DNA of 64,000 bases from a virus (lineage: Duplodnaviria; Heunggongvirae; Uroviricota; Caudoviricetes), in IMG/VR virus record IMGVR_UViG_3300025011_000017. One strand, given 5' to 3'. Each line of letters starts with the position of its first letter. The stretch's first letter is position 1. The notes beneath the pieces were generated by a model. That model had not been told where the DNA came from. It worked only from the letters and a program-made list of their open reading frames with translations, and ran no database searches. The position numbers and the translations under genes were made by a program. Positions 10,816-56,854 of the stretch are shown here, piece by piece.

Positions 10816-10822
10816 GAAACGA

Positions 10823-10852
10823 AGAGGGAGTAATTTAATACTCCCTCTATTA
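10823..10852 (+). terminator. stem-loop terminator after SPFH gene
   Basis: 10-bp perfect stem AGAGGGAGTA / TACTCCCTCT, 6-nt loop; weak U tract. Confidence 0.45.
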
Positions 10853-10860
10853 AAAAGGGT

Positions 10861-11067
10861 GTGTTAAAAATATCTAGTTCAAGTAGTTCTTCTGATGGAA
10901 TTGGATTTGTTGGATTATTAACAGTATTATTTATAGGCTTAAAGTTAACTAATTACATTGCTTGGTCATGGCTATGGGTTCTAAGTCCATTATGGATTTC
11001 ATCTATATTTGTTATTATTCTTCTTGTAGGAGTAATTATTGCTTGGGTAAGCAAAGGTAGTCTTTGA
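10861..11067 (+). CDS. small 2-TM membrane protein
   Basis: Hydrophobic ORF after terminator hairpin; start uncertain. Confidence 0.3.
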   Translation: MLKISSSSSSSDGIGFVGLLTVLFIGLKLTNYIAWSWLWVLSPLWISSIFVIILLVGVIIAWVSKGSL

Positions 11068-11438
11068 TGGCTAAATTATGCCCTTTAATTAATAAAAAAG
11101 TATTATATTTAGTCTGTATGGAATGTGAAAATAAAATTTGTAAAGAATAAGAAAGGAAGTATTACTATAGAAATTATTAATAAGATAAGAGGGATTTAGA
11201 TATAGGTAAAAGAATATTTTCTCAGCAAGAGATAGACGATATGGTAGATATGTATCAAAACGGAGATTCGTTTAAAGATATATCTATAGAAGACTGATCA
11301 ACAGTGGTCATTATTGATCAATAAGCAAAAATCATATATAAATCAAAGAAGATCTAAAATTGGAGAAGAATTAACTAGAGATATTATAGTCAAATATATT
11401 GACGATAATAATATAAATATTAAGGAGAGTGTATTAAG

Positions 11439-13086: not shown

Positions 13087-14412
13087 ATGGAAAAAATATA
13101 TTCTATTCTTAAAGAGATACAAGAAACATCAAGTAGAAATCAAAAAGAAAAAATATTAAAAAATAATTCTGAAAATCAATTACTTAAAGATATATTAAAA
13201 TTTGTATTTTCTCTTGAAGTAAAAACGGGAATTAAGCGTAAAAAATTAGAAAAAGAAGTTACGTCTGACCAACTAGTTGATATTGAAGGGTTTTATGGAC
13301 TTAGAGAATATATTATTAATAATGGAACTGGATCTGATAAAGTTATTGCCAACATACAGAAATTTTTATCTGAACAAACAGAAGATTTAAAAGATTTATA
13401 CACACGTATTATTCTTCAAGACTTACGATGTAATCTGAGTGAAAAAACTATCAATAGTGCTTTTGGATATGAATTTATATATATCCATAAATTAGAGAAA
13501 GGAGAAGTAGCAGAACCAAAACATCTTAAATTACTTGAAGAAAAAGAATTTGGTATATATAAAAAAATAGATGGATATAGAGCAGAGATTGTAGTAGGAT
13601 ATGACAAGATTAAAATAATGTCATCTGGAGGTGAATTATATAAAGAATTAATTGACATTGAAAGAGCGTTTTTAGATGCTAATTTACCTAAAGGAGTATT
13701 TGCATGTGAATTGTTAGCAATTGATCCTTCGGGACAAATGACACGAATGGAAATATTTAATAAAACTGGATCTATATTACGGAGAGATGGAATAAAAGTT
13801 GGAATTGAAGTTAATGTATTTAATTTTATTCCTGACGATGGATTTTTTAAGGGAGAGCATCCATTTTCTTGTCGTAGAAGAAAGGAATTAGCGAAACAAT
13901 TAGTTGATAAAATTAATTCTCCGTTTGTAAAAAATATTGATCCTCTATATATCGGAAAAGATTTGTCTCAAATTGATTATTGGTTTGAGAAGATGATTTT
14001 AGCTGAAGATGAAGGAATAATGGTTTTACCTCTAGATCAAAGGTATGTTGGGAAAAAATCGTATACACAAATGTTGAAGATTAAAACTGAAAATGAGTGC
14101 GACATTCGCGTAATTGGTTTTGAAAAAGGAGCTAAAGGTAAGGAGTTTGAGAATACTTTAGGAACTTTAATTTGTGACTTTAAGGGAAATCCAATTAGAG
14201 TAATGTGTGGATATAAAATAAAATATAACTCAAATAAATATGATGATCGAATGGTTAGGGATTATATTTGGACTCATCAAGAAGAACTGTTAGATAAAAT
14301 CGTGAAGGTGCGTTATATGGATATCTCCATAAACGACAGTGGTGGAACAGACTTGAGAATGGCAAGACTTATTGAATATCGTGATGATAAATCAGAATCA
14401 TCATATAACTAG
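13087..14412 (+). CDS. lig: ATP-dependent DNA ligase
   Basis: Motif I KKIDGYRAEI (KxDGxR), motif III FACELLAID, motif IV EGIMVLP, motif V MLKIK. Confidence 0.8.
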   Translation: MEKIYSILKEIQETSSRNQKEKILKNNSENQLLKDILKFVFSLEVKTGIKRKKLEKEVTSDQLVDIEGFYGLREYIINNGTGSDKVIANIQKFLSEQTEDLKDLYTRIILQDLRCNLSEKTINSAFGYEFIYIHKLEKGEVAEPKHLKLLEEKEFGIYKKIDGYRAEIVVGYDKIKIMSSGGELYKELIDIERAFLDANLPKGVFACELLAIDPSGQMTRMEIFNKTGSILRRDGIKVGIEVNVFNFIPDDGFFKGEHPFSCRRRKELAKQLVDKINSPFVKNIDPLYIGKDLSQIDYWFEKMILAEDEGIMVLPLDQRYVGKKSYTQMLKIKTENECDIRVIGFEKGAKGKEFENTLGTLICDFKGNPIRVMCGYKIKYNSNKYDDRMVRDYIWTHQEELLDKIVKVRYMDISINDSGGTDLRMARLIEYRDDKSESSYN

Positions 14413-15304: not shown

Positions 15305-15760
15305 ATAATAATTAAAATAGTTGATGGAGATATTTTACAAGCATCGGAAAAACTGGTGGTGCATCAGGTTAACTGTATGGGAGTTATGGGTGGTGGCATC
15401 GCATTACAAATTAGAAATCAGCTTCCTAAAGTTTACAATGAATATAAAAGATTATGTAGTAATACTGATCCAAAACAATTATTAGGAACAATTCAATGCG
15501 TAGAAGATGATTTTGGCAGAGTATTTGTTAATTTATTCGGACAATTAAATTATGGTAGAGATAAACAATATACTGATTATGTGGCTTTAAGAAGAGGTTT
15601 GTTAAATGTTTATAATATAGCAAATCAGTATAATGTGTCAGTTGCAATTCCATTTAATATTGGTTGCGGTCTTGCGGGTGGAGATTGGAATGAAGTTTAT
15701 AAAATGATAGAAGAAATTTTCGGAGATTATGATGTAACTTTATATAGATTGGAAGTATAG
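15305..15760 (+). CDS. Macro domain protein (ADP-ribose binding/hydrolase)
   Basis: VDGDILQASEKLVVHQVNCMGVMGGGIALQI matches macro GDIT...VNAAN...GGGV motifs; conserved N-terminus lies upstream of the first canonical start (GTG 15356); start near 15305-15311 (ATA/ATT) or ATG 15298 with +1 shift in an (AAT)4 run. Confidence 0.6.
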   Translation: MIIKIVDGDILQASEKLVVHQVNCMGVMGGGIALQIRNQLPKVYNEYKRLCSNTDPKQLLGTIQCVEDDFGRVFVNLFGQLNYGRDKQYTDYVALRRGLLNVYNIANQYNVSVAIPFNIGCGLAGGDWNEVYKMIEEIFGDYDVTLYRLEV

Positions 15761-15773
15761 AAAGGAGTAACAA

Positions 15774-15941
15774 GTGGATAATAATGTTATAGGATCGTTA
15801 TATTTAGTTAAAGTTGATTCAAATGAAAATAATAATAAATATTACAAAATGATTCCAAATGGCAATGGTACATTTACAACTCAAAATGGAAGAATTGGAG
15901 TAGATCATTTTCAAACCACTACTTATCCTATTAGCAGATGA
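15774..15941 (+). CDS. WGR-domain N-terminal fragment of PARP-like protein (terminated by in-frame TGA)
   Basis: GTG with AAAGGAG RBS; NKYYKMIPNGNGTFTTQNGRIG (WGR core); remainder of WGR (KLKRKGY) continues in the same frame after TGA 15939-15941. Confidence 0.55.
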   Translation: MDNNVIGSLYLVKVDSNENNNKYYKMIPNGNGTFTTQNGRIGVDHFQTTTYPISR

Positions 15942-15962
15942 AATGAAAAATTAAATGAAAAA

Positions 15963-16988
15963 TTGAAGAGAAAAGGATACACAGACCAAACTAGATTAGT
16001 TGCAGAAATTACATCTTCTTCTAAAAATAAAGAATATTTAGATATTGAAAATTCTTCTATCTCAGCAATTGTCGCAAGATTACAAGCTATGGCTAAACAA
16101 GCTATTGCAGACAACTATACAATATCTTCAAATAAAGTAACTCAGACAATGATAGATGAAGCTCAAATAACATTAAATAATTTAATGACAGCAGATTCAA
16201 TCGAAGCGTTTAACAAAATATTAGTTGAGTTATTTCAAATTATTCCTCGTAAAATGAAAAAAGTAAAAGATAATTTAGCTAAAATAGATAAAGATTTTGG
16301 AGAAATTATTCAAAAAGAACAAGATTTGCTTGATGTGATGAAGGGTCAGGTGGTTATTACATCTGTACAAGATGAAACTGAGCAAGAAATAGTTAATAAT
16401 CAAACTATATTAGACGCTTTAGGATTAAGATTTGAAGAGATTACACAAGAAGAAGAGAGGATGATTAAGAGAGAACTTGAGGATATTAGCAATAGATATT
16501 ATCAAGCATGGAAAGTGATTAATATTAGAACTCAGGAGAGATTTAATAAATTTATTATCAATGAAAAAATTGAAGACAACAGGTTATTATTTCATGGTAC
16601 TCGTTCAGAGAACGTATGGAGTATAATTAACTCTGGATTAGTTTTAAGACCTTCCGCTAAAATTACAGGAAAAATGTTTGGATATGGAATTTATTTTGCT
16701 CCAAAAGCCCAAAAATCATTAGGATATACGTCTATTTCAGGGTCTAGATGGTCTAAAGGAAACGATAAAACTGGATTTATGGCATTATTTGACGTTGCTT
16801 ATGGAAAACCATACGATGTACACTCATTTGATAATAAGTATTATAAGTTTAACTATGAAGAATTGCAAAAAGCTAGTAAGGGTAGTAATTGTTTACATGC
16901 ACACAAAGGCAAGATGTTATTTAATGATGAGATCATAGTATACAAAGAAAATCAAATGACCATAAAGTATTTGATAGAATTAAAATAA
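15963..16988 (+). CDS. PARP-like ADP-ribosyltransferase catalytic region (helical domain + ART; H-Y-E triad present)
   Basis: [39 protein letters not shown] close to PARP1 [48 protein letters not shown] matches the catalytic-Glu motif; same frame as the WGR ORF. Confidence 0.75.
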   Translation: [341 protein letters not shown]

Positions 16989-26333: not shown

Positions 26334-26362
26334 TTGACAAGCAGTAAGTAATGGTATATACT
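26334..26362 (+). promoter_or_regulatory. promoter upstream of Prs-like/Nampt-like operon
   Basis: TTGACA 26334-26339; TATACT 26357-26362. Confidence 0.5.
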
Positions 26363-26380: not shown

Positions 26381-27181
26381 ATGATAAAAATTAATGGCAA
26401 TCATATAGGAGAAGATTGTTACCCTAATAACGAAAGAATATTTAGATTACCCCTTGAGAGGTTTTATCAGGATGAAGATTTTATCATAGAACTTAAATAC
26501 ACAACAGATATTGATCTTTCTATCCTTAATATGTGCAAAAGGTATTTAGAAAATAACTTTTATAATTCAAAAGTAACATTGGTAATGAAATATATTCCAT
26601 ACTCTAGAATGGATAGGAATATTAACGGTTACATGTTTAGTCTTAAATATTTTTGCAAATTCATAAATGAACTATATTTTGATGAGGTAATAGTTTTAGA
26701 TCCTCATTCTAATGTTGCTACAGCATTATTGGATAGATGTGTTGAGATTGATTTAAATCCGTATATTGATAAAATAATGCGAAGATTGCAAATAGACTAT
26801 GTATTATTTCCAGATAATGGTAGTTTAAAAAAGTATACCGAAATACTTACTTTAAGAAAACTCTACTTTTACGGAAATAAGAAACGCAATCTTCAAACTG
26901 GAAAAATACTTTACTATGAACTTATTGATTGTCCAGATCTAAAAGGTAAAAATATTTTAATTATTGATGATTTATGCTCAAAGGGTGGAACGTGTCATCA
27001 TGCTTCGTTGAAACTGAAAGAATTAGGAGTAAATGAGATATACTTGTATTTTTCTCATTGTGAAGATTCAATTTATGATGGTGCGCTATTAAATTCTGGA
27101 TTAATTTCGAAGATATTTACTACCGATAGTATTCTAAGTAACTGGACTAATAGTTTACTTAGTAATATAGAACAAATATAA
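26381..27181 (+). CDS. Prs-family ribose-phosphate pyrophosphokinase-like protein (candidate ADP-ribose pyrophosphokinase of an NARP1-like pair)
   Basis: PRPP-binding loop GKNILIIDDLCSKGGT aligned with Prs GKTAILIDDIIDTAGT; own promoter 26334-26362. Confidence 0.6.
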   Translation: MIKINGNHIGEDCYPNNERIFRLPLERFYQDEDFIIELKYTTDIDLSILNMCKRYLENNFYNSKVTLVMKYIPYSRMDRNINGYMFSLKYFCKFINELYFDEVIVLDPHSNVATALLDRCVEIDLNPYIDKIMRRLQIDYVLFPDNGSLKKYTEILTLRKLYFYGNKKRNLQTGKILYYELIDCPDLKGKNILIIDDLCSKGGTCHHASLKLKELGVNEIYLYFSHCEDSIYDGALLNSGLISKIFTTDSILSNWTNSLLSNIEQI

Positions 27182-27199
27182 AATAAAGGGGATATTAAA

Positions 27200-28912
27200 A
27201 TGAAATGTGATCCGATGTTTTGGGCAGATTTTTACAAAATTAGTCACTATTTGATGGGAGAAAAGGGTACGGAAAAACTTTATTCCACGTTTACACCACG
27301 ACATTCTAGAATAGAGGGAATTAATGAAGTAGTATTTTTTGGACTCCAAGGCTTCATTAAAGATTATATCATAGAGCAGTTTAACGTAGGATTTTTTAAA
27401 GTAAAAAAATCAAAAGTAATAAAAAGATATAAACGTCTTATATCATGTACTTTAGGAGATGGTTGTGCTGACTCTTCCCATATTGAAGCATTACATGATC
27501 TTGGGTATCTTCCTATTAGAATTAAGGCTGTCAAAGAAGGAACTTTGATTCCTATGAGAGTACCTGTATTTACAATTGAAAGTACAGATGAAAATTTTTA
27601 TTGGTTGCCTCTGTTTATGGAAACATTTATAAGTGCAAATATATGGAAAGTAATCACTTCTACAACTATTGTTAAAAAATACAGGGATATTTGTGAAAAA
27701 TGGTCAGAAAAAACATGTGATGATAGGTCGCATATTCAATGGCAATGTCATAATTTTAGTTATCGTGGAATGTCGGGAAATGAAGACGCTACTACTACAG
27801 GAGCAGGACATCTATTATATTTCACGGGTACAGATACGATTCCTTCTATTCTATATTTAGAAGATTATTATGGAACCAATGTAGAAAAAGAGCTTGTAGG
27901 AGCGTCAGTTCTTGCTACTGAGCATAGTATCCAATGTGGATATCAAGATGATATGAGATATTTTAAGAGAATGATTACAGAGGTTGCTCCAAATGGCATA
28001 GTTTCTGTTGTCGCAGATGGATATGATTATTGGAATTTCATTGGTAATATTGTTCCTGCTTTAAAAGAAGATATTATGAATAGAGATGGGAAGGCTGTAA
28101 TTCGTCCTGATTCTGGTTCGCCAATTAAAATCATTTGTGGGACAGTAATTGTTGAAAGTTTAACTAATCAAAATTATTGTGAAACATTAGAAAAATGTAA
28201 GACATGGATGCTAGATGGAATTAAAGAAGAAGTAAGAGTTGAAACTCCTCATGGAGAATATGGCGATTCCGAAGTAACTAGATACTTTAAATTTGACAAT
28301 AAAATATATAAAATCGTTGTTGAATTTGATTGGAATAGATACGATAAACAATATTATTATATGGATGGTAGTCGTGTAATAAGTTGTGATGAAATAGAAT
28401 TAACTATTGAACAAAAAGGTTCGGTAGAAGCATTATGGGATACGTTTGGAGGTACTGTTAATAGTAAGGGATATAAAGTATTAGATAGTCATGTGGGATT
28501 AATATATGGCGATTCAATTACTCCTGAATATGCAGAAGAAATTCTTAAACAACTAGAAGAAAAAGGTTTTGCAAGTTCGAATATTGTTTTTGGAGTGGGG
28601 TCTTATTCATTAGGATACTACACAAGAGATACCTTTGCGTTTGCTATGAAGGCGACTTACACCGTAATTAATGGAGAAGAGAGATTCATATTTAAAGATC
28701 CTAAAACAGATAATGGAATTAAAAAATCTCAAAGAGGTATGGTTGTAGTTCTACAAGATCTTGATACTGGTGAAATTTATTTTAAAGATGGATTAAATGC
28801 TGAAGAAAGAGATAATTATAAAGAATATGATTTACTTGAAGATGTTTTCGTTGACGGAAAAATGGTAAGGGAACAAACTTTGGCAGAAATAAGAGCAATC
28901 GTCTTAAAGTAA
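27200..28912 (+). CDS. nicotinamide phosphoribosyltransferase family protein (Nampt/Namat-like)
   Basis: Collinear with human NAMPT motifs: FWADFYKISHY / LPIRIKAVKEGTLIP / HNFSYRGMSGNEDATTTGAGHLLYFTGTDT / IRPDSGSP. Confidence 0.85.
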   Translation: MKCDPMFWADFYKISHYLMGEKGTEKLYSTFTPRHSRIEGINEVVFFGLQGFIKDYIIEQFNVGFFKVKKSKVIKRYKRLISCTLGDGCADSSHIEALHDLGYLPIRIKAVKEGTLIPMRVPVFTIESTDENFYWLPLFMETFISANIWKVITSTTIVKKYRDICEKWSEKTCDDRSHIQWQCHNFSYRGMSGNEDATTTGAGHLLYFTGTDTIPSILYLEDYYGTNVEKELVGASVLATEHSIQCGYQDDMRYFKRMITEVAPNGIVSVVADGYDYWNFIGNIVPALKEDIMNRDGKAVIRPDSGSPIKIICGTVIVESLTNQNYCETLEKCKTWMLDGIKEEVRVETPHGEYGDSEVTRYFKFDNKIYKIVVEFDWNRYDKQYYYMDGSRVISCDEIELTIEQKGSVEALWDTFGGTVNSKGYKVLDSHVGLIYGDSITPEYAEEILKQLEEKGFASSNIVFGVGSYSLGYYTRDTFAFAMKATYTVINGEERFIFKDPKTDNGIKKSQRGMVVVLQDLDTGEIYFKDGLNAEERDNYKEYDLLEDVFVDGKMVREQTLAEIRAIVLK

Positions 28913-30447: not shown

Positions 30448-31539
30448 ATGAAATTACAATTAGTAGAATATATCAAAAATAATTCAGACTGGGAAACTAA
30501 ACTAACCCAAAAACCATATTGTCTAACAATTAAACGTAAAGATAACTTGATAATGTTTTGCTATAATCAAATAGAGTCTAATTTTAATCTGCTATTAGTC
30601 AAGCAAAGCAGAGGAATTGTCCTTGAAGATACAACATTTAAACCTGTCTGCGTACCATTCTTTAAATTTTTTAATTTTGGTGAAACGAACGCAAGTGAAA
30701 TTGATTGGAATACTGCTAAAATTAATGAAAAACTCGATGGATCGTTGATCAAGCTATGGTTTTATGAAGACGAATGGAGAGTGTCTACCAACGGCACAAT
30801 TGATGCCAAAGACGCAAATTTATCAAGTGAAGTTAGTGAATATCAGAATTATTATGATCTGTTTTTAGTAGCACTTAGAGGCACAAGTATACAGTTACAT
30901 GAATTAGATCGACAATATACTTTTATGTTTGAATTAATGTCACCTTATAATCGCGTAGTAGTTCCGCATAAAAATATCCAAATACTTCATATTGGAACTC
31001 GATGCAATACAACTCTCGAAGAAGTAAATATTGATATTGGAGTACAGAAACCTAAATCATATAGCTTCAAATCAATAGAAGAGTGTATGGAGGTTGCTAA
31101 AGAATTACCGTTTACGCAAGAAGGATACGTTGTTGTAGACGATGACTGGCGTAGAATTAAAATAAAAAGCCCTGCATACGTGGCAGTTCATCATCTCGCT
31201 AATAACAATATTATCACTAAGAAAAGAATCGTAGATTTAATAAAGTTAAATGAAGACTCTGAGTTTCTTGCTTATTTTCCTGAATATAAAGATGCAGTAG
31301 AAGATATTCGTAAGAAGATTAGTGCTTTTGTATCAGATATGGATTGGTGCATCGAGTGTCAACAAGAAATTAAGAATAAGAAAACTATTAATCGAAAAAA
31401 ATTTGCGGAATTTGCTTTAAGTACAAAATGTAGTCCTGTTTTATTTAGTTGGTTAGATGGGAAAATATCCAATACTCAAGAATGGCTTTATGCACAGACA
31501 AGTGAGAAAATAGTTGAATGGATTGAAGGAGTGAAATAA
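30448..31539 (+). CDS. RNA ligase, Rnl1-like
   Basis: Motif I EKLDGSL, motif IV QEGYVVV, motif V IKIKS. Confidence 0.6.
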   Translation: MKLQLVEYIKNNSDWETKLTQKPYCLTIKRKDNLIMFCYNQIESNFNLLLVKQSRGIVLEDTTFKPVCVPFFKFFNFGETNASEIDWNTAKINEKLDGSLIKLWFYEDEWRVSTNGTIDAKDANLSSEVSEYQNYYDLFLVALRGTSIQLHELDRQYTFMFELMSPYNRVVVPHKNIQILHIGTRCNTTLEEVNIDIGVQKPKSYSFKSIEECMEVAKELPFTQEGYVVVDDDWRRIKIKSPAYVAVHHLANNNIITKKRIVDLIKLNEDSEFLAYFPEYKDAVEDIRKKISAFVSDMDWCIECQQEIKNKKTINRKKFAEFALSTKCSPVLFSWLDGKISNTQEWLYAQTSEKIVEWIEGVK

Positions 31540-31540
31540 A

Positions 31541-32428
31541 ATGGTTAAATTCTATATGATGATTGGATTACCTGCAAGCACAAAGACAACTTATGCGTAC
31601 AAAATTGCTGAAAGAGACAAAGCGTTAGTATATTCATCTGATGACCTGAGAGTTGAACTATACGGAAATATTAACAATCAGTCACATAATGAAGCACTAT
31701 TTATAGAATTATATAAACGTATTCGTGATTCGCTAAAAGCAGGTAAGAATGTGATTCTCGATGCAACAAATATTTCGTACAAGAAAAGAATTTCATTTTT
31801 AGATACCTTAAAGAATATTGAATGTGATAAAATAGCTATATTTATGGCAACACCATACGAGGATTGTTTGAGATTAAATAAATTAAGGGAGAGAGTGGTT
31901 CCTGAATTTATAATAAAACGTATGTATGAAAATTTTAATGTACCTCAACGATTTGAAGGATTTGATTCGATAGAAATTGTATGGAACACTTTTGGTCGTA
32001 CATTTGACGGTTTTGATTTATTCGATGAATTAGATGAAATGGATCAAATTACTCCTTACCACACTCATACAATTGGCATACATTGCAAAGAGTGTTACAG
32101 GATATGTTCAAAGTTATCAGATAATTATGAACTAAGAATTGCTTCCTTGTTTCATGATATATCTAAACCATTCGTTCAACAATGGAATGATGAGAAGAAA
32201 CGTTGCACCTACTATCAGCATCATCTCGTTTCAGCTTACGATGCTATGTTTTACCTTCGCGAAATTAATCAAGATTCTCTCTTAAAGATAGTAAATTATA
32301 TTCAATTCCATATGTTACCATATAATTTAATATCTGATAAATCTAAAGAAAAATTTATCAAACTAGTCGGCAAAGAATTCTTCGACAACTTATTGTTACT
32401 TAATTATGCTGATACAAATGCTCATTAA
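31541..32428 (+). CDS. P-loop kinase - HD phosphohydrolase fusion (polynucleotide kinase/phosphatase-like end-healing enzyme)
   Basis: N-terminal MIGLPASTKTT (deviant Walker A), ILDATN; C-terminal HD motifs H..H, LFHDISKP. Confidence 0.5.
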   Translation: MVKFYMMIGLPASTKTTYAYKIAERDKALVYSSDDLRVELYGNINNQSHNEALFIELYKRIRDSLKAGKNVILDATNISYKKRISFLDTLKNIECDKIAIFMATPYEDCLRLNKLRERVVPEFIIKRMYENFNVPQRFEGFDSIEIVWNTFGRTFDGFDLFDELDEMDQITPYHTHTIGIHCKECYRICSKLSDNYELRIASLFHDISKPFVQQWNDEKKRCTYYQHHLVSAYDAMFYLREINQDSLLKIVNYIQFHMLPYNLISDKSKEKFIKLVGKEFFDNLLLLNYADTNAH

Positions 32429-33981: not shown

Positions 33982-34006
33982 AATAAAATAAAAGGTGGAA
34001 ATAAAA

Positions 34007-35098
34007 ATGATAGTTAATGAAAAAAATAACATGGTGACTATGATCGACAGGAAAAATAGATTTGTCGAGAAGTTTAATCGTGAGACAGGTTTCTATATTA
34101 GATCTGGAGTAATGGACAAAGATGGCAATGACACTGGTGTAGATCCATTTATGAGACAGTTTCCCTCGCTACTGGATATTGGAATTATGGGACATTGCAA
34201 GAATGCTTTAAGATGTACAGTTGGTTGCTATCAAGGAAAAATGAATAAACCTAATATGTCTCTTGAAAACTTTAAGAAAATAGTTGATCAATCTAAGGGA
34301 AAAGTATTTGAAATGGCATTAGGAGGAAGTGGTAGTCCAAATGAACACGAAGACTTTATCGAAATTCTCAAATATGCTAGAGGAAACGGTATTGTGCCTA
34401 ATTACACTACCTCTGGAATTGATTTAACTGACGAGCAAATTAAAGCTACAAAAGATTTCTGCGGTGCAGTTGCCGTGAGCCATTATGATCAACCTTACAC
34501 TTATGACGCAATCAATAGATTTATTGAAGCAGGATGTAAAACTAATATACATTTTGTCTTAGGAAATGATTCCATTGATGATGCAATTAGAAGGCTTAAA
34601 GAAAATGATTTTACCAAAGGCATTAATGCTGTAATATTTCTTATGTATAAACCAGTTGGTTGTGTAAAAGAAGGAAATGTTTTAAAATTTGATGATCCAA
34701 GAGTTGCAGAATTTTATAATTTAATTGACACTGGAGAGTTTGATTTTAAAGTTGGTTTAGATGCCTGTCATTTACCTGCTTTAATGAATTTCTCAAAAAA
34801 TATAAGTGTTAATTCAGTAACTCCTTGTGACGGGGCGAGTTTTTCTGGATACGTGACTCCTGATTTTAAAATGTTACCTTGTTCATTTGATACAGTTACA
34901 TTAAAATATGCTGTAGATTTAAATGAATATACAATCCAAGAAGCATGGGATAGTGATAAATTTGAGTTATTCAGAAACTATCATAAAAATAGTTGTTCAG
35001 GATGTGCAAATCAAAACGATTGTAGAGGTGGATGTGTCTTGACACAAGAAATAAATAGATTATGTAATAGAAAGGAGAAAGACATTTATGAAATTTAA
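34007..35098 (+). CDS. radical SAM / SPASM-domain enzyme (non-canonical CX5CX3C cluster motif)
   Basis: GIMGHCKNALRCTVGCYQG, glycine-rich FEMALGGSGSPNEHED (GGEP-like), NYTTSG; C-terminal CSGCANQNDCRGGCV SPASM/twitch signature plus extra Cys (CDGASFSG...LPCSFD); start ATG 34007 (track GTG 33995). Confidence 0.6.
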   Translation: MIVNEKNNMVTMIDRKNRFVEKFNRETGFYIRSGVMDKDGNDTGVDPFMRQFPSLLDIGIMGHCKNALRCTVGCYQGKMNKPNMSLENFKKIVDQSKGKVFEMALGGSGSPNEHEDFIEILKYARGNGIVPNYTTSGIDLTDEQIKATKDFCGAVAVSHYDQPYTYDAINRFIEAGCKTNIHFVLGNDSIDDAIRRLKENDFTKGINAVIFLMYKPVGCVKEGNVLKFDDPRVAEFYNLIDTGEFDFKVGLDACHLPALMNFSKNISVNSVTPCDGASFSGYVTPDFKMLPCSFDTVTLKYAVDLNEYTIQEAWDSDKFELFRNYHKNSCSGCANQNDCRGGCVLTQEINRLCNRKEKDIYEI

Positions 35099-35432
35099 GA
35101 GTGATTATACTACTAATTCTAGTAGCACATGTTTTACTATTACTAATAAATCTAACAAAGACAAAACTTTGGTTGATTTTGTGACAGAAAATCCACAATT
35201 GGTTAAAGAATTTGTTGATGAATATCGTGGTGGAGATGATAAATATTTTACCCAAGGAAGAATGTTAATTGATGCAGAAAAAAGAAGTGAAATATTTCCT
35301 GCTAATTCATCTATAAATAGTGGCTATGGAGATGAAGATGGAGATGTATTAGGACATGTATTTGACTATATTCTTAGAGATGGTGGTAAGTCCGAAAGTT
35401 TTGAATGGGAATTCAAGGAATATTGGAGGTAA
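35088..35432 (+). CDS. paralog 1 of TNSSSS-motif small protein family (114 aa)
   Basis: MKFKSDYTTNSSSTCFTI...; start overlaps rSAM gene end by 11 nt. Confidence 0.5.
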   Translation: MKFKSDYTTNSSSTCFTITNKSNKDKTLVDFVTENPQLVKEFVDEYRGGDDKYFTQGRMLIDAEKRSEIFPANSSINSGYGDEDGDVLGHVFDYILRDGGKSESFEWEFKEYWR

Positions 35433-35434
35433 AA

Positions 35435-35719
35435 ATGAAGATTAAAACTGATTATACTACTAACTCGTCTAGCTCATCATTTATTTGTACTAAATGTAAA
35501 AATTTAATTCATGATTTTGATAACGATGCAGATTATGAAAGGGAAATGTGCGATTCTTGTTATCAAGATTTAAGTCCAGAAGATAGAAAAAGGTTGGATA
35601 ATGGCGAAGATATTAATTATAATAAAGTGGAAAGTTATTTGGAGTTTTTATGTCAAAAAATGATTTATGATAAGAAAGAAATAATGAATAATTATAAAGA
35701 GTGGAGGAAGTCACATTGA
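35435..35719 (+). CDS. paralog 2 of TNSSSS-motif family (94 aa; CxxC...CxxC)
   Basis: GGAGGTAAAAATG; MKIKTDYTTNSSSSSFICTKCKN...CDSCYQ. Confidence 0.5.
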   Translation: MKIKTDYTTNSSSSSFICTKCKNLIHDFDNDADYEREMCDSCYQDLSPEDRKRLDNGEDINYNKVESYLEFLCQKMIYDKKEIMNNYKEWRKSH

Positions 35720-36132
35720 AAACACGGTTAGATTTTGTAACAAATAGCTCAAGCAGTTCTTTTATTGCAGTTTTTGCAAGAATTTCAGATAAATCAAAAG
35801 CACAACCAATTATCGAAAAATATGACTATGAGGTTTATACAGGCGAAGAACTTTTAATAGCAATGGGGAATAGAATATGGAGTAAATTATTTGAATGGGA
35901 TTGGGCAGGAGTAGACCTTACTCCTTCAGAAGAATATGTGCAAAAGAATATCACTTCTGAATTCATCTTTTTTAGTGACAATGAAGATATTGATGAATCG
36001 GATGGAGAACCTAATTATGATATTGATACAGATGATTTTTCAGAAGAAACAATGAAAGCAATTGATGCAGTAAATAAAGAAAATGGATTTACTGATATCA
36101 AATCAGGATTTGGTGCAGGGAGGGATGGTTAA
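35716..36132 (+). CDS. paralog 3 of TNSSSS-motif family (138 aa; acidic C-terminal tail)
   Basis: TTG after GGAGGAAG; LKTRLDFVTNSSSSSFIAVF...; overlaps paralog 2 stop. Confidence 0.5.
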   Translation: MKTRLDFVTNSSSSSFIAVFARISDKSKAQPIIEKYDYEVYTGEELLIAMGNRIWSKLFEWDWAGVDLTPSEEYVQKNITSEFIFFSDNEDIDESDGEPNYDIDTDDFSEETMKAIDAVNKENGFTDIKSGFGAGRDG

Positions 36133-36492
36133 TTGAAGATACGCTTAGATTATATTACAAATAGTTCTAGTTCATCCTATACTTGTATTATTTGTGACAA
36201 TACGGAGTCTGGAATGAATGTAGGAATGTCTGAATTAGGAATGATTCAATGTGAGAACGGTCATACGATGTGTGAAGATCATGCAACAGGAGAAATTGAT
36301 GATACGTATGATTTTCCTGCTGAAAGTTGTCCAGTATGCACATTTGATAATCTTATAGATAAAGATATTTCTAAGTATCTTTTGAAAAAGTATAATATAA
36401 ATTTATCCGACCTTAAAACAGAAATGAAGACAATTTTTACTAATTACAATGAATTCGAGCAATATATTATAGTTGACAAAAGTATAAAATAA
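36133..36492 (+). CDS. paralog 4 of TNSSSS-motif family (119 aa; Cys/His-rich)
   Basis: TTG after GGGAGGGATGG; LKIRLDYITNSSSSSYTCIICDN...CPVC. Confidence 0.5.
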   Translation: MKIRLDYITNSSSSSYTCIICDNTESGMNVGMSELGMIQCENGHTMCEDHATGEIDDTYDFPAESCPVCTFDNLIDKDISKYLLKKYNINLSDLKTEMKTIFTNYNEFEQYIIVDKSIK

Positions 36493-36495
36493 TGC

Positions 36496-36524
36496 TTGAC
36501 ACGGGATTAAAATAATGATATACT
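36496..36524 (+). promoter_or_regulatory. promoter upstream of vWA/Ter module
   Basis: TTGACA 36496-36501; TGaTATACT 36516-36524. Confidence 0.5.
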
Positions 36525-36626
36525 AAAAGAGTAGTAAAACCTATCGCCTCCAACTCTTTAAAGAGCAAAATTAATCTCGTCAATTAATTTTGCTCTAATA
36601 AAAAATAAAAGGAGAAATGAAAAACT

Positions 36627-37421
36627 ATGGGATTATTTGATAAACTATTTGGTAAAAAAACTCAAACTCAAACTCAAACTCAAACTCAAACTCAAACTCA
36701 AACACAGGTAGTAACACCAACAATTTTAACACCTATTATACCAGAGGTAAACAATATTAGAAAACTAGATTTACGTAAAGAAACTCTTAAAATTTCACTT
36801 GTAAAGAATTCAATGGAAAATGTTGTGGCGAGAGTAGCATTAGTTTTGGACAAATCTGGATCAATGGACTATTTATATAATAGGGGAGTTGTTCAGTCAG
36901 TAGTCGAAAGAATATTACCCATAGGGCTTAAATTTGATAAAGATGATGAGTTAGATGTATGGGTATTTCATAATACCTTTAAAAGAATGACTTCTGTTAC
37001 AGAAAATACATTTCATGACTACGTAAATCGTGAAATTATACCTAAATATGGTTGGGGTGGAACGAGTTATGCACCTGTAATTAAAGATATTATGAACAGG
37101 TATATAATTGAAGAACCATCTGACATTCCGACATTTGTAATATTTATTACAGATGGAAATAATAACGATAAAGAAGAAACAACAAAAGCTATTATTAAAG
37201 CGTCTAATTATAATATTTTCTGGCAATTTATTGGAATTGGACATGAAAAGTTTACGTATCTCAAAGATTTGGATACAATGGATGGACGCTTAATCGATAA
37301 TGCTAATTTCTTTGAGATAAAAGATATTAACAAGATTAATGACGAACAACTCTATGATCTTTTACTGAATGAATATCCGTCTTGGGAAAAACTTGCTCTA
37401 AAAGCAAAATTAATTAGATAA
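36627..37421 (+). CDS. vWA-domain protein (TerY-like) with N-terminal (Thr-Gln)8 repeat
   Basis: MIDAS LVLDKSGSMDY; (ACTCAA)n encodes TQTQTQ...; promoter 36496-36524. Confidence 0.65.
   Translation: MGLFDKLFGKKTQTQTQTQTQTQTQTQVVTPTILTPIIPEVNNIRKLDLRKETLKISLVKNSMENVVARVALVLDKSGSMDYLYNRGVVQSVVERILPIGLKFDKDDELDVWVFHNTFKRMTSVTENTFHDYVNREIIPKYGWGGTSYAPVIKDIMNRYIIEEPSDIPTFVIFITDGNNNDKEETTKAIIKASNYNIFWQFIGIGHEKFTYLKDLDTMDGRLIDNANFFEIKDINKINDEQLYDLLLNEYPSWEKLALKAKLIR
36656..36704 (+). repeat. (ACTCAA)n hexanucleotide microsatellite, about 8 units, in frame within the vWA gene
   Basis: aaactcaaactcaaactcaa... encodes (TQ)8. Confidence 0.8.
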
Positions 37422-37427
37422 GTGTTA

Positions 37428-37456
37428 TTGACAAACTTAAAATAATGTGTTATACT
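37428..37456 (+). promoter_or_regulatory. promoter upstream of terD
   Basis: TTGACA 37428-37433; TGtTATACT 37448-37456. Confidence 0.5.
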
Positions 37457-37497
37457 TACGGAGTAAACAAAATACAATAAAAAGGGGAGAAAATTAA

Positions 37498-38073
37498 ATG
37501 TCAATTGATTTAGTAAAAGGTCAAAAACTCGACTTAACGAAAGGTACTTCTTTAAAAAATATTAAGGTTGCTCTAGGATGGGATGCTCAAAAACATGTAG
37601 GAAAAGATTTTGATCTAGATGCTTCAGTTTTTTGTTGTAACGAAAAAGGTAAATGTGTAAATGACACTGATTTTATTTTTTATAAAAATTTAAAACATCC
37701 TTCAGGGGCAATTATTCATACAGGTGATGATAAAACAGGTGAAAATGAAGGCGATGATGAGACGATAATTGTTGACTTCTCCAAAATACCAGAAAATATT
37801 AGCAAGCTTGACTTTGTAGTAACTATTTACGATGCGTTAGCACGTAGTCAAAATTTTGGACAAGTAAATAATGCGTATGTTCGTGTATTGGACTCTGATC
37901 AAAATGACAAAGAATTACTTCGTTTTGACCTTGGAGAAGATTTCAGCTTAGAGACAGGAGTTTCAGTTTGTGTAATTTATCGTAAAGATGGAGAATGGAG
38001 ATTTCAAGCTGTTGGATCAGGATATAACAATGGTCTTGAGGGATTTTGTAGGGAACATGGTTTAGATGTTTAA
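37498..38073 (+). CDS. terD: TerD-family stress protein
   Basis: MSIDLVKGQKLDLTKG..., Ca-binding GDDKTGENEGDDETI motifs; promoter 37428-37456. Confidence 0.75.
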   Translation: MSIDLVKGQKLDLTKGTSLKNIKVALGWDAQKHVGKDFDLDASVFCCNEKGKCVNDTDFIFYKNLKHPSGAIIHTGDDKTGENEGDDETIIVDFSKIPENISKLDFVVTIYDALARSQNFGQVNNAYVRVLDSDQNDKELLRFDLGEDFSLETGVSVCVIYRKDGEWRFQAVGSGYNNGLEGFCREHGLDV

Positions 38074-38096
38074 ATAAAAATAAGGGGGAAAATTAA

Positions 38097-38243
38097 ATGG
38101 AAAAGAAAAATAAGGTAAAATTAGTTCATCTTAAAGGTTGTGAAGGTTGTAGTAATAGTTGTCAATTTAAAAGTTTAAATTCAATTGATGGTGGATTAAA
38201 AGAAATATTTTCATGTAATACGGTTAATTTTAAAACATTTTAA
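38097..38243 (+). CDS. 48-aa Cys-containing small protein
   Basis: Strong RBS AAGGGGGAAAATTAAATG; CEGCSNSC. Confidence 0.35.
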   Translation: MEKKNKVKLVHLKGCEGCSNSCQFKSLNSIDGGLKEIFSCNTVNFKTF

Positions 38244-38288
38244 TGTTTAAATTAATTAAAAAAATTACCAAACGAAAGAGGAAAAGAA

Positions 38289-39023
38289 ATGAATGATTTT
38301 TTTACTAATATTTTGCTTAATTTACAGCATTTTAATTTACATGAATTGGGACTAGTAATACAAAGTCCTAAAGATATTTTCCTTATCATGACACTATTTT
38401 TTATGGAAATATTTTTGTCCATAGATAATGCTCTTGTTTTGGCAATTATGGTAAAACATTTGCCTCCAAAAGAGCAAAAGAAAGCATTAAAATATGGAAT
38501 AGTAGGAGCTTATACTTTTAGGCTAATAGCAATTACGTTGGGTCTGTATCTTGTAAAAATTATGTGGATAAAATTATTAGCCGCATTATATTTAGCAAAA
38601 ATAGTATTTGATTTTTTTAGAAATAAAGACGAAAATCAAAATGGTGTTAAGGACGTCATGGAAAAAAGTTTAATTGCAACAATTATTTCAGTTGAACTAG
38701 CAGACATAGCTTTTAGTGTAGATAGTGTCGTAGCCGCATTTGGTATCTCAGATATTCCTTGGGTTATTGCAATTGGCGGTATGGTTGGAATTTTGGCAAT
38801 GCGAGGTATTGCACAATTGTTTGTAAAATTAGTTGCTAAAATTCCTGAGTTAGAAACTACGGCACATGTATTGATTGGTATTATTTCCTTAAAGATGTTT
38901 TTGGGAGTGTTTAGTATTCATCCTCCAGAGTGGTTATTCTTTGCTACATTAATTAGCACATTTGTCGGGACATTCTTCGTACATCAATATCGACAAAAAA
39001 ATATTTCACAAACTGCTAAATAA
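38289..39023 (+). CDS. terC: TerC-family integral membrane protein
   Basis: LSIDNALVLAIMV signature, multiple TM helices. Confidence 0.65.
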   Translation: MNDFFTNILLNLQHFNLHELGLVIQSPKDIFLIMTLFFMEIFLSIDNALVLAIMVKHLPPKEQKKALKYGIVGAYTFRLIAITLGLYLVKIMWIKLLAALYLAKIVFDFFRNKDENQNGVKDVMEKSLIATIISVELADIAFSVDSVVAAFGISDIPWVIAIGGMVGILAMRGIAQLFVKLVAKIPELETTAHVLIGIISLKMFLGVFSIHPPEWLFFATLISTFVGTFFVHQYRQKNISQTAK

Positions 39024-39026
39024 AGC

Positions 39027-39055
39027 TTGACAAGTAGTAAATAATGTGTTATACT
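39027..39055 (+). promoter_or_regulatory. promoter downstream of terC
   Basis: TTGACA 39027-39032; TGtTATACT 39047-39055. Confidence 0.5.
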
Positions 39056-39102
39056 AAAAGAGTAGTAAATTTAAAGTTTAAAGTTAAAAGGAGTTAAAAA
39101 AT

Positions 39103-39726
39103 ATGGAAATTACGATTACAAGAGCCTTAGCAGAGAAGAAAATGCTTTTAAAGCGAATCGAAAATGGCACATTGTCTCTTCAATCTGTAAGCGTATGTAC
39201 TGGCAAGAAACCTGTCAATGGATTTTCAAGTAATGAAGATTTTGTTAAAAATTCAGATGCAATGTATCAATCTGTGGTATCTTTAATAGGACGTTTGGAA
39301 GCAATTGAAACTGAAGTAGCAAATTCTAATGCAACGACAATGGTTACAATTTGTGAAAAAGAAATGACTGTAGCATCGGCAATTAAGCGTAAAACATTGA
39401 TTAAGCTAGATGAAACGTTGTTACGTAAGATGAAAAATGATTACCAAAGAATGTTAGATCATGTAGAAAAAGAGTCTTTAAAGTTGCAAGTTAGGTTAGA
39501 TGATCTTATTACAAAAAGTTTTACTAGCGGAACTCGTCCTAAAGAAGATGATATTCTTGCAATTAGTAGACCATTTATGGAAGCAAATGAAGTAAAAATG
39601 GTAACAATGAGTGGTCTTAAAGAAAAGATTGAAGTAATGGGAAATGAGATTGACGAATTTTTGCTCAATGTAGATTTTGCCTTATCGGAATCAAATTCAA
39701 CTACGAAGATTACAATTCCTGACTAA
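39103..39726 (+). CDS. hypothetical helical protein (207 aa) downstream of Ter genes
   Basis: RBS AAAAGGAG; promoter 39027-39055. Confidence 0.5.
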   Translation: MEITITRALAEKKMLLKRIENGTLSLQSVSVCTGKKPVNGFSSNEDFVKNSDAMYQSVVSLIGRLEAIETEVANSNATTMVTICEKEMTVASAIKRKTLIKLDETLLRKMKNDYQRMLDHVEKESLKLQVRLDDLITKSFTSGTRPKEDDILAISRPFMEANEVKMVTMSGLKEKIEVMGNEIDEFLLNVDFALSESNSTTKITIPD

Positions 39727-40254
39727 TATAAAGTAATGTTTATTGCTACTTAGTCGAAGATTGTTAAAAGTAAATGCCCTTGGGGATTGGGTCAAATCCC
39801 TTTAAGAATGTATTTGATAGCTATATCAAATAATTAAAGATGAAGAACTTAGATGATACATCTAAATCTTATAACTTTATTTATATTATATAATATGATT
39901 GTCAAAGTTTAAAGATTATAAGTTCAAATCTGAAAGATTAATGCTTAAAATTTTTTATGATGAGTTGGATAGAATATTTATCCATCCATCACTCAAGTCT
40001 TAATATATTCAAGACTTACAAGTTTTAGCAAATCTTAGAAAAATGGTAAAATGAGGGGTTCATTTATTGCCCTCGATGATCACCACTAAGCAGATTAGGT
40101 AGCAACCAATTTTGAGAGGATATAGTGAAAACTGTATCCTCCCACTTATCTCAAAAATTAAGGATGTGATGGAAAAGATTTGATTGTGTAAATAATAATA
40201 AAGTAGTGTGTTGGAGAAACAATAATAAAAAATATGAAAGAGGTTTTTAATTAA

Positions 40255-55718: not shown

Positions 55719-55941
55719 AGACATGATAACTTTAATAGCTCTTTTGACTCTGGCAGATGATATGGGGTTTGATGATAATAAAGCAAATGAAATTATAGGA
55801 AAAGATAGAATAGATAAAATTGATAATTTGTTTTCTAAAATATTTAATGATTCAAATAGTGAATATGATGAATATATATTAAATTTATCATTTAATATGA
55901 TTAAAGATATTATTGATAAGATTGATACTGATAATAAATAA
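55705..55941 (+). CDS. hypothetical protein
   Basis: RBS AAGGAGG; 78 aa. Confidence 0.4.
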   Translation: MKISKDMITLIALLTLADDMGFDDNKANEIIGKDRIDKIDNLFSKIFNDSNSEYDEYILNLSFNMIKDIIDKIDTDNK

Positions 55942-55954
55942 GGAGAATAATAAA

Positions 55955-56854
55955 ATGGAACAAAAGAAATATACTGATGTTATACGTCTTGGTCACAAAA
56001 CAACAGTAGGAGTATTAACAAAAGGCGACAATATAATAATTCAAGAGAAGATTGACGGTTCGAATGCAGGATTCAGAAGAGTTGGCGATAAACTTATCGC
56101 TTACTCTCGTAACAATGAATTACACGAAGGATTGACTCTTAATGGGTTTTATCAATTTGTTCAATCTCTAAATCCACAAATTTTTGTAGAAGGTTATATT
56201 TATTTTGGAGAATGGCTTCGTGCAAAACACAAAATAGATTATTCAAAACGAACAGCAGATTTTTATATGTTTGATTTATACGATGTGGATAATGAATGTT
56301 ATTGTGATTATACAGATGCTAAATTTGTGGCTGAATTAATTGGATTAACCTTTGTACCCATTTTTTATGAAGGAGAATACATTGATTTTGAACATCTTAT
56401 GTCTTTTGTAGGTAAATCAGATATTGCAGAACATGGTGAAGGAATTGTAGTTAAAAATACAAATTATCGTAATCAATATGGTAATCAAATTTATGTTAAA
56501 TTAGTTACAGAAGAATTTGCAGAAACACAGAAACAAAAACTTCCAAAAGATCCTACTGGATATGGTTTAAATAAATTTGTGGCAGAATTTCTAACTCCTG
56601 CAAGAGTAGAAAAATTTATGTACAAATTAGTAGATGAACAATTTATTCCTGAAGATTATGGAATTGAACTTATGGGAACTATCCTAAAAGAACTTGGATC
56701 AAGAATATATGATGATCTTCTTAAAGAAGAGTCTGATAATCTTTCAGAAGAAGATTCTGATGAAAAAGATATTAAAAAGTCTATTGGAAAAGTTTTACCT
56801 TTACTTGTTAAATCAATTGTGTTAGAAAATCAAAAGAATTATCAACAAGTATAA
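55955..56854 (+). CDS. Rnl2-like RNA ligase family nucleotidyltransferase
   Basis: Motif I EKIDGSNAGF, III YIYFGEWL, IV HGEGIVVKN, V YVKLV; ATG 55955 after ATAAGGAG (track 55913). Confidence 0.55.
   Translation: MEQKKYTDVIRLGHKTTVGVLTKGDNIIIQEKIDGSNAGFRRVGDKLIAYSRNNELHEGLTLNGFYQFVQSLNPQIFVEGYIYFGEWLRAKHKIDYSKRTADFYMFDLYDVDNECYCDYTDAKFVAELIGLTFVPIFYEGEYIDFEHLMSFVGKSDIAEHGEGIVVKNTNYRNQYGNQIYVKLVTEEFAETQKQKLPKDPTGYGLNKFVAEFLTPARVEKFMYKLVDEQFIPEDYGIELMGTILKELGSRIYDDLLKEESDNLSEEDSDEKDIKKSIGKVLPLLVKSIVLENQKNYQQV

Follow-up and report, generated by a model that had tools for sequence, protein, structure and literature searches.

The ter operons of enterobacteria give resistance to tellurite, to phages (the Phi phenotype), and to colicins (PacB). 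Ter genes have been tied to these resistances for about 40 years, and we use the term Ter stress-response system as Anantharaman, Iyer, and Aravind (2012) do. Structures of TerD (2kxt and 3ibz) show a Ca2+-binding beta-sandwich, and in Bacillota the yceCDEF genes of Bacillus subtilis form a cellular Ter operon. TerC proteins belong to the LysE superfamily and act in Mn2+ efflux and exoenzyme metalation in B. subtilis (PMC10550928). Ter operons carried by phages were described by Iyer, Anantharaman, Krishnan, Burroughs, and Aravind (2021, Viruses 13:63; PMC7824862), who put forward a superinfection-exclusion hypothesis in which TerC changes membrane transport, TelA and the TerF vWA form sub-membrane structures, and Ter is used against superinfecting phages. 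Here, we analyzed a set of Ter genes at positions 36496 to 39726 of a 64,000-nucleotide stretch of Caudoviricetes DNA (IMG/VR record IMGVR_UViG_3300025011_000017), referred to below as the window. The functional unit at this locus consists of three genes, encoding a TerF-type vWA protein, TerD, and TerC, and not of five.

Gene sets of this kind are already present in published phages, namely CP-51, LysYB1, CcrColossus, Otagovirus, and Phapecoctavirus. New here are the phage lineage, a likely Clostridium-like host, the lack of TelA in the window, and an extra 48-amino-acid insert. The three genes and the repeat within the first of them are as follows.

36627 to 37421, + strand: TerF-type vWA/MIDAS protein, 264 amino acids (PF10138), with the N-terminal peptide MGLFDKLFGKK, a low-complexity linker, and a vWA domain
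36660 to 36707, + strand: (TQ)8 coding repeat, (ACTCAA)7 followed by ACACAG, residues 12 to 27 of the vWA protein
37498 to 38073, + strand: TerD, 191 amino acids, by homology a Ca2+-binding beta-sandwich (PF02342)
38289 to 39023, + strand: TerC, 244 amino acids, a polytopic membrane protein of the LysE superfamily (PF03741, TIGR03716)

A stand-alone TerF-type protein, TerD, and TerC

The initial annotation had read this locus as a Ter-like stress module of five consecutive genes. All five open reading frames (ORFs) are present, each with a Shine-Dalgarno (SD) sequence. TerD matched PF02342 over its full length with an E value of 3.5e-73 and the solved Klebsiella TerD (2kxt) with an E value of 2e-57, and both of its calcium motifs, GDDKTG and GDDET, are present. 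The terC gene starts 215 nucleotides 3′ of terD. Its product matched PF03741 (9e-47) and scored 212.6 bits against the NCBIfam model for the YkoY subfamily, TIGR03716, for which the cutoff is 138.5. The protein has at least six hydrophobic or transmembrane segments and the paired motifs SIDN and SVDS, and it is predicted to be a divalent-cation (Mn2+) translocator. The assignments of TerD and TerC thus stand after profile searches.

The vWA protein had been called TerY-like, which we corrected to TerF-type. Its best Pfam match is vWA-TerF-like (PF10138, 4.7e-70), a Ter-associated family, over profile positions 2 to 198 of 200, and the generic VWA model reached just 3e-9. The MIDAS is complete (D75-x-S-x-S, T146, and D176). 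The protein stands alone, with no fusion to TerD as in TerF itself. The TerY-P triad (a TerY vWA protein with PP2C and a Ser/Thr kinase) shares with this locus the vWA/MIDAS domain protein of Ter systems, but neither a Ser/Thr kinase nor a PP2C turned up in precomputed Pfam maps, whose coverage of the window is about 58 of the 64 kb, and there is no PADLOC match. The same maps contain neither TelA nor TerB. Local tblastn, which was run over the whole window, found nothing with two phage TelA proteins, and nothing at an E value of ≤1 with four Metabacillus proteins representing the Ter biosynthetic enzymes (PRTase_2/TRSP, HAD, C-C bond lyase, and StiP/PELOTA).

Proteins of like architecture from Bacillus, Clostridium, Aneurinibacillus, Paenibacillus, Brevibacillus, and Desulforamulus are 50 to 61% identical to the phage vWA protein. 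The family alignment shows a conserved architecture of an N-terminal MG(L/I/F)FD-x-F-K-K, a low-complexity linker of variable length, an LNLRKETF segment, and the vWA domain. The (TQ)8 repeat, which the initial annotation had pointed out and which is indeed present, falls exactly in the variable linker, and the vWA linker of a related metagenomic phage contig (L010) is rich in Pro, Ser, and Ala at this place. Therefore, (TQ)8 is a local variant of a hypervariable disordered tether and nothing special. Two short-read assemblies end inside the repeat, as expected for a 42-nucleotide tandem repeat. The apparent vWA fragment in L010 was ruled out as a pseudogene, as a scaffold gap of Ns splits the gene. 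A 266-amino-acid gene in contig L020 that we considered as a vWA gene turned out to encode a GIY-YIG endonuclease.

Recurrence and origin of the Ter genes

The order TerD followed directly by TerC is kept in metagenomic phage contigs L007, L009, L010, and L011, at 65 to 69% identity, and L010 has the full order vWA-TerD-TerC. The pair is also found in L020, a more distant phage-like contig in which it likewise precedes a YorF gene, in published Herelleviridae that infect Bacillus and Lysinibacillus (LysYB1, YungSlug, and CP-51 gp82-83), and in bacteria (L019 and L012, a contig with TerD-TerD-TerC). The Caulobacter phage CcrColossus has TelA-vWA-DUF475-TerD, the Pseudomonas phage Pyxpy02 has TelA-x-vWA-x-TerC-TerD, and in the Escherichia phage phiWec188, a TelA-like gene, a vWA gene, and terD are clustered. 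The numbers of phage records with TerD and with the vWA protein coincide genus by genus (39 and 39 in Pseudomonas, 13 and 13 in Caulobacter, 10 and 10 in Rhizobium, and 7 and 7 in Brevundimonas). The Ter families are rare, being present in 214, 329, and 16 of 50,697 phage records. Because each family occurs in well under 1% of the records, the adjacency of the Ter genes is beyond chance. Thus, the consecutive vWA, TerD, and TerC genes do form a Ter-like module, as first proposed, and this trio recurs in phages. A viral-contig scan with the single TerC protein found no relatives.

The modules of CcrColossus (gp219-222) and Pyxpy02 (genes 143-148) resemble the one in the window in that TerD, a protein of the TerC clan, and a TerF-type vWA protein are encoded together on a single strand, within a region of early or accessory genes. 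However, both include TelA, which the window does not, and their order is of the type TelA-vWA-TerC-TerD, compared to vWA-TerD-x-TerC in the window. Their hosts are Proteobacteria, and CcrColossus has DUF475 rather than TerC proper. In the Herelleviridae (CP-51 gp82-83, JL, Shanette, YungSlug, and LysYB1/2), which likewise have Bacillota hosts, TerD lies directly 5′ of a TerC of 244 to 250 amino acids, and the window proteins are 54% (TerD) and 41 to 46% (TerC) identical to theirs. These are myoviruses of another family, whereas the DnaE of the window resembles that of Bacillus siphophages of about 165 kb. They usually have two TerD paralogues and lack the 48-amino-acid insert, and in LysYB1 the TerF-type vWA gene is about 8 kb away instead of adjacent.

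For each of the three Ter proteins, the nearest relatives are proteins of cellular Bacillota, at 50 to 61% identity. Outside phage-like contigs, the closest TerC is one of these, from Metabacillus, at about 50% identity. In Metabacillus fastidiosus, this TerC is encoded in an operon of four TerD genes, TerC, a C-C lyase, PRTase_2/TRSP, StiP/PELOTA, and HAD. The order of TerD and TerC is the same as in the phage, with 50% identity for TerC and 54% for TerD. Compared to this cellular operon, the phage has one TerD, the whole metabolite-biosynthesis half is gone, and a stand-alone TerF-type vWA protein has been added. The trio thus appears to be derived from Ter operons of cellular Bacillota, which are the likely source of the phage genes.

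The phage TerC passes the same NCBIfam subfamily model as MeeY (YkoY) and MeeF (YceF) of B. subtilis and keeps the acidic and polar intramembrane motifs. Unlike the riboswitch-controlled YkoY/MeeY gene, phage terC is not preceded by a yybP-ykoY Mn2+ riboswitch, and no Mn2+ riboswitch was matched in Rfam at the gathering score in the window or at an E value of ≤1 between 36400 and 40300. Despite its match to the YkoY model, we assign the phage TerC to the Ter operon lineage and not to riboswitch-controlled ykoY, because its Metabacillus homologue lies in a Ter operon. We also considered a Mn2+ riboswitch in place of the small ORF between terD and terC. This was ruled out, as there was no Rfam match and the ORF has a strong SD sequence and a conserved homologue.

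Mobile elements invade the Ter modules of phages related to this one. In L020 (4239 to 5039), a gene for a GIY-YIG homing endonuclease separates two terD genes, and an IS605 OrfB/TnpB (Cas12f-like) gene lies directly 3′ of TerC in contig L008 (1520 to 2656).

Promoters and transcription units

Three promoters of one family, a hairpin, and a noncoding spacer were located in and next to the module.

36496 to 36524, + strand: promoter P1 (TTGACA-N17-TGaTATACT), perfect family match, 131 nucleotides 5′ of the vWA start codon
36562 to 36596, + strand: perfect 14-bp hairpin in the vWA 5′ untranslated region, AGAGCAAAATTAAT, 7 nucleotides, ATTAATTTTGCTCT
37428 to 37456, + strand: promoter P2, perfect family match with the TG extension, 70 nucleotides 5′ of terD
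39027 to 39055, + strand: promoter P3, 76 nucleotides 5′ of a 207-amino-acid gene, followed by the downstream sequence AAAAGAGTAGTAAA that P1 and P3 have in common
39727 to 40254, + strand: noncoding, hairpin-rich spacer of 528 nucleotides between the module and SPbeta-like replication genes (YorF-like at 40255)

The promoter family has the form TTGACA-N17-TATACT with TGn. With up to 1 mismatch, the window contains 11 copies compared to 0.8 expected, all on the + strand and each 46 to 196 nucleotides 5′ of an SD sequence and start codon. There are 6 perfect copies in the 64 kb, and half of these (at 36496, 37428, and 39027) lie inside the 2.6-kb Ter stretch. These copies are those already reported, one before the vWA gene, one before terD, and one before the gene that follows terC. 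The further claim that each of the five genes has its own copy held for the vWA gene, terD, and the 207-amino-acid gene; no promoter of their own was found for the small Cys ORF or terC, so that only 3 of the 5 genes have one. The three module copies match 11 of 12 consensus positions plus the TG of an extended −10 element and lie 70 to 131 nucleotides before start codons. By sequence, they are near-consensus sigmaA (sigma-70)-type promoters, i.e., of host type. No terminator was predicted anywhere in the module, and terD-orf48-terC also contained no internal promoter or riboswitch. The transcription units would then be P1 to the vWA gene, with possible read-through, P2 to terD-orf48-terC, and P3 to the 207-amino-acid gene, and host RNA polymerase would transcribe the module early.

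The 5′ untranslated region of the vWA gene is 96 nucleotides long. Its hairpin has a minimum free energy of −20.1 kcal/mol (z = −4.6 compared to shuffled sequences), and its two arms occur together nowhere else. We ruled it out as a terminator, as it has no U-tract. The corresponding region in L010 also contains a hairpin (8-bp stem), without sequence similarity to that of the window.

The 528-nucleotide spacer at 39727 to 40254 has inverted repeats and a minimum free energy z score of −4.0 compared to shuffled sequences, and it has no Rfam or tRNA match. It could be an origin, a regulatory region, or an RNA of a new type. L020 has a gap of 440 nucleotides at the matching position. A conserved noncoding RNA 3′ of the 207-amino-acid gene was not established, given that the gaps in the window and in L020 share no similarity and that there was no Rfam or tRNA match.

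Two adjoining genes outside the Ter module

The two remaining genes of the five were assessed in the same way.

38097 to 38243, + strand: 48-amino-acid protein with 4 Cys residues (CxxCxxxC...C), with a strong SD sequence, between terD and terC
39103 to 39726, + strand: 207-amino-acid helical protein of the T5 ORF080/phrog_1491 family (phrog_1491, 6.6e-55)

The 48-amino-acid ORF is probably a real gene, because it has a strong SD sequence and because the chance of an open frame of this length is about 0.009 per frame at the local base composition. The protein is probably a small metal-binding protein. None of the relatives has it, L007, L009, L010, and L020 included. An exhaustive HMMER scan of 1.8 billion representatives found a single true homologue (P0216), which is 53% identical, keeps all 4 Cys residues, and is encoded on a contig of 49% G+C without Ter genes. 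A second candidate, P0215, was ruled out as a spurious tandem-repeat protein. We also tested the ORF as a SCIFF precursor of a ribosomally synthesized and posttranslationally modified peptide (TIGR03973) and rejected it, with 16.5 bits against a cutoff of 50 and 4 Cys residues instead of 6. The radical-SAM/SPASM gene 3 kb upstream matched generic models solely, below their cutoffs, and so does not qualify as a SCIFF maturase. Taken together, the 48-amino-acid gene is a lineage-specific insert, a neighbor and not a Ter component as had been suggested.

The gene after terC is not a Ter component either. Its family is found in 711 phage records, including T5 (ORF080), and no Ter gene neighbors it in the early regions of T5, phiPsa300, or Seu621. 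It also occurs in Otagovirus and the Vequintavirinae away from Ter genes; Otagovirus has TelA plus a gene of this family. The AlphaFold2 model (pLDDT of 92.8) shows a bundle of helices plus a small sheet, and its best fold match is 3kdq, of which the function is not known. We rejected this protein as a TelA- or PspA-like Ter component, since its matches to PspA and ZapG were weak (E values of 0.004 to 0.055) and the model fits 3kdq and, weakly, BAR-like bundles. The gene is best treated as a separate transcription unit, a neighbor and not a Ter component.

Members of the T5 ORF080/phrog_1491 family are labeled “tail fiber protein” in many records, yet they lie in early regions, and the label looks like a propagated misannotation. 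At each of the four phage loci inspected (window, 39103 to 39726; L013, 5995 to 6612; L014, 5989 to 6636; and L015, 3989 to 4627), the gene is followed by about 370 to 600 nucleotides without an annotated coding sequence or by a tRNA array.

The phage and its probable host

At a G+C content of about 29%, the window has practically all of its genes on the + strand and is part of the genome of a large uncultured phage of roughly 180 kb. Metagenome assemblies, from groundwater among others, contain identical sequence in contigs of 70 to 183 kb. No near-identical match was found among the 50,697 GenBank phage records. Its DnaE-type polymerase is about 47% identical to the DnaE of the ~165-kb Bacillus siphophages and belongs to an SPbeta-like replication block downstream of the Ter region (YorF, AAA_24, YorH, DnaB, RecJ, and DnaE). 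No integrase, repressor, or other lysogeny gene was seen in the Pfam maps of the window.

One contig, L024, has the same gene layout as the window, with genes for a Prs-like protein, nicotinamidase, NAMPT, NAD synthase, a TerF-type vWA protein, RecU, AAA_24, and YorH. In L024, the vWA gene is at the same genomic position, without TerD or TerC. This contig (BHYK01000021.1, 88.9 kb) lies within a bacterial genome assembly, that of Clostridium tagluense (GCA_003865095.1), and is probably a phage or phage-plasmid that was co-assembled with its host, which makes it a host clue. In addition, one neighboring gene has its best match in a Clostridium botulinum phage. Based on the L024 layout and this match, we consider a Clostridium-like bacterium of the low-GC Bacillota to be the probable host.

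Neighboring genes

The initial annotation had noted that Ter operons were predicted to act with phosphoribosyltransferase (PRTase) and nucleoside-metabolite modules. The PRTases near this locus are of another type. At 26381 to 28912, 8 to 10 kb upstream of the Ter module, a gene for a Prs-like protein (266 amino acids; phrog_619; TIGR01251 at 82 bits, below the cutoff) lies directly 5′ of one for a NAMPT-like protein (570 amino acids; phrog_448; NF006629 at 520 bits), and the pair has its own copy of the promoter family at 26334. This pair fits the published NARP1 NAD+-reconstitution anti-defense pathway (Adps and Namat) and not a Ter PRTase, and the biosynthetic module of Ter systems is absent from the window. 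The pair is found again in L024 and in the Klebsiella phage Seu621, close to the same region. Therefore, its proximity reflects a shared accessory region and not a link to Ter.

A second vWA gene (11439) had been reported near an SPFH/band-7 gene (9889) as a related membrane-stress pairing. Both genes are real, but a conserved pairing is not supported by the two other phages inspected. The SPFH gene matched PF01145 (5e-29). No Pfam match was obtained for the gene at 11439; it encodes a divergent vWA protein, as judged from a BLASTP E value of 6e-7 to the first vWA protein, a DRSGS...TDG pattern, membership in phrog_7371, and the vWA annotation of its homologues in XacN1 and Pyxpy02. It is followed by a DNA ligase gene in the window. 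In Pyxpy02 and IMGVR 15682261, its homologues are surrounded by genes of the recombinase, exonuclease, or phosphohydrolase type, and neither phage has an annotated SPFH gene close by. Between the two genes in the window, about 620 nucleotides (10816 to 11438) contain no ORF of ≥90 amino acids and no called gene.

Several other gene groups in the window were recorded. Just after an ATP-dependent DNA ligase gene (13087 to 14412), consecutive genes at 15356 to 16988 encode a Macro domain (weak match), a small WGR protein (weak match), and a PARP catalytic domain (PF00644, 3e-24), a eukaryote-style ADP-ribosylation set that is unusual for a phage. At 30448 to 32428, a T4 Rnl1-type RNA ligase gene (PF09511) is followed by one for a KTI12/AAA_33/HD protein (kinase-phosphatase-like), and the two are probably a tRNA-repair pair that would counter anticodon nucleases. 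Another gene of the RNA_ligase family lies at approximately 55913 to 56854. Directly before the Ter module, at 33995 to 36492, the radical-SAM/SPASM gene (generic matches solely) is followed by genes for four small paralogous proteins of 114, 104, 143, and 119 amino acids, all of which begin with (K/R)x(D)(Y/F)xTNSSSSSF and two of which are Cys-rich. None of the four matched Pfam, NCBIfam, or PHROG, and no phage record matched the last one (36133 to 36492) in tblastn. These proteins are possible substrates or partners of the radical-SAM enzyme.

Discussion

The account that we consider the most probable, held with some reserve, is that the trio is a host-derived, abbreviated Ter module that conditions the membrane and cation balance of the cell, most likely for superinfection exclusion. 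It follows the proposal of Iyer et al. (PMC7824862). TerC would insert into the host membrane, and TerD and the vWA protein would act at its cytoplasmic face as Ca2+- or Mn2+-dependent partners. Together, they would condition the envelope and the divalent-cation balance of the infected cell. The most likely benefit would be the exclusion of superinfecting phages or colicin-like agents, in line with the phenotypes classically ascribed to ter operons (Phi and PacB), and the trio would also buffer envelope stress during the shut-off of host stress responses. As the window lacks the Ter signal-biosynthesis enzymes, TelA, and TerB, the module would act constitutively or with Ter components of the host.

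Several points weigh against superinfection exclusion by a trio acting as one. To our knowledge, the biochemical role of TerD and of TerF-type vWA proteins is not established even in bacteria. The early timing of expression rests solely on promoter sequence, and none of the module proteins matched a PADLOC defense model at an E value of ≤0.01. In the literature, we found no experimental study of phage-borne Ter genes, the nearest being the report that terD operons are highly transcribed in Jug phages (PMC12880540). Finally, the Ter parts have separate promoters and are also found apart in relatives (the vWA gene alone in L024, and TerD-TerC alone in L007 and L020), so that they may not act as one machine.

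This last point can be taken further, to accessory genes that were acquired and transcribed separately and that share a permissive site between the NAD/RNA-repair and replication blocks. The three separate promoters within 2.6 kb and the unrelated 48-amino-acid gene inserted between terD and terC would agree with such a site, as would the GIY-YIG endonuclease between the terD copies of L020, the TnpB gene after TerC in L008, and the vWA gene without TerD and TerC at the same genomic position in L024. However, TerC directly follows TerD in every Bacillota phage that we examined and in bacteria, and vWA, TerC/DUF475, and TerD genes cluster in at least four unrelated phage lineages. With each family in <1% of phage records, chance adjacency is very unlikely, and we regard this explanation as improbable. 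We give still less weight to a benefit for the carrier cell, in which the trio would be a moron that confers xenobiotic, tellurite, or oxidative-stress tolerance in lysogeny or pseudolysogeny, like the ter islands on prophage-like elements and plasmids. The ter operon of Escherichia coli is usually on a prophage-like element (PMC8193136), xenobiotic resistance during pseudolysogeny was raised by Iyer et al. (PMC7824862), L024 is a close relative within a C. tagluense genome assembly, and host-type promoters could fire in a carrier state. Nevertheless, the window has no integrase, repressor, or other lysogeny gene, the genome, which carries replication and nucleotide-metabolism genes of its own, looks like that of a large phage of the lytic type, and the minimal tellurite determinant of enterobacteria requires TerB, C, D, and E, of which TerB is absent.

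The handling of metals is the strongest of the competing explanations, although we still consider it on the unlikely side. Here, TerC would export Mn2+ like MeeF and MeeY and metalate Sec-exported or membrane enzymes (e.g., LtaS or phage-encoded exported proteins). TerD and the vWA protein would buffer or sense Ca2+ or Mn2+, and secretion and envelope synthesis would be kept running in infection. TerC scores above the cutoff of the YkoY/MeeY subfamily model, the function of MeeF and MeeY has been shown experimentally (PMC10550928), the metal-binding motifs are intact in all three proteins, and Jug phages pair terD with a Ca2+ P-type ATPase (PMC12880540). Against this, the nearest cellular TerC belongs to a classical Ter operon and not to a ykoY-type unit with a Mn riboswitch, the phage gene itself has no riboswitch, and we identified no obvious Mn-dependent exported phage enzyme in the window. 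Superinfection exclusion remains the account that we favor.

A bolder version of that account seems unlikely to us as a whole. The trio would be a self-sufficient, “signal-less” Ter effector set of a virulent Bacillota phage, turned on from host promoters as infection begins, to re-plumb membrane Mn2+ and Ca2+. TerC would be the conduit, and TerD and the tethered MIDAS protein, with its short N-terminal peptide and its flexible linker of (TQ)n, would make up a layer under the membrane and thereby keep out the DNA of competing phages. The 48-amino-acid CxxCxxxC...C protein would be a new, small metal-binding accessory of TerC. If this were true, the set would be the first tractable minimal system for the biochemical function of TerD, TerC, and TerF.

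The pattern has been published before, and our finding extends it by one example, in a new lineage of phages whose host is likely Clostridium-like. The compact, promoter-defined trio lacks the biosynthetic half and would be a convenient minimal construct for testing TerD, TerC, and the TerF-type vWA protein. Phages have taken up the same set of three or four Ter genes from host bacteria again and again, which implies a strong, portable function.

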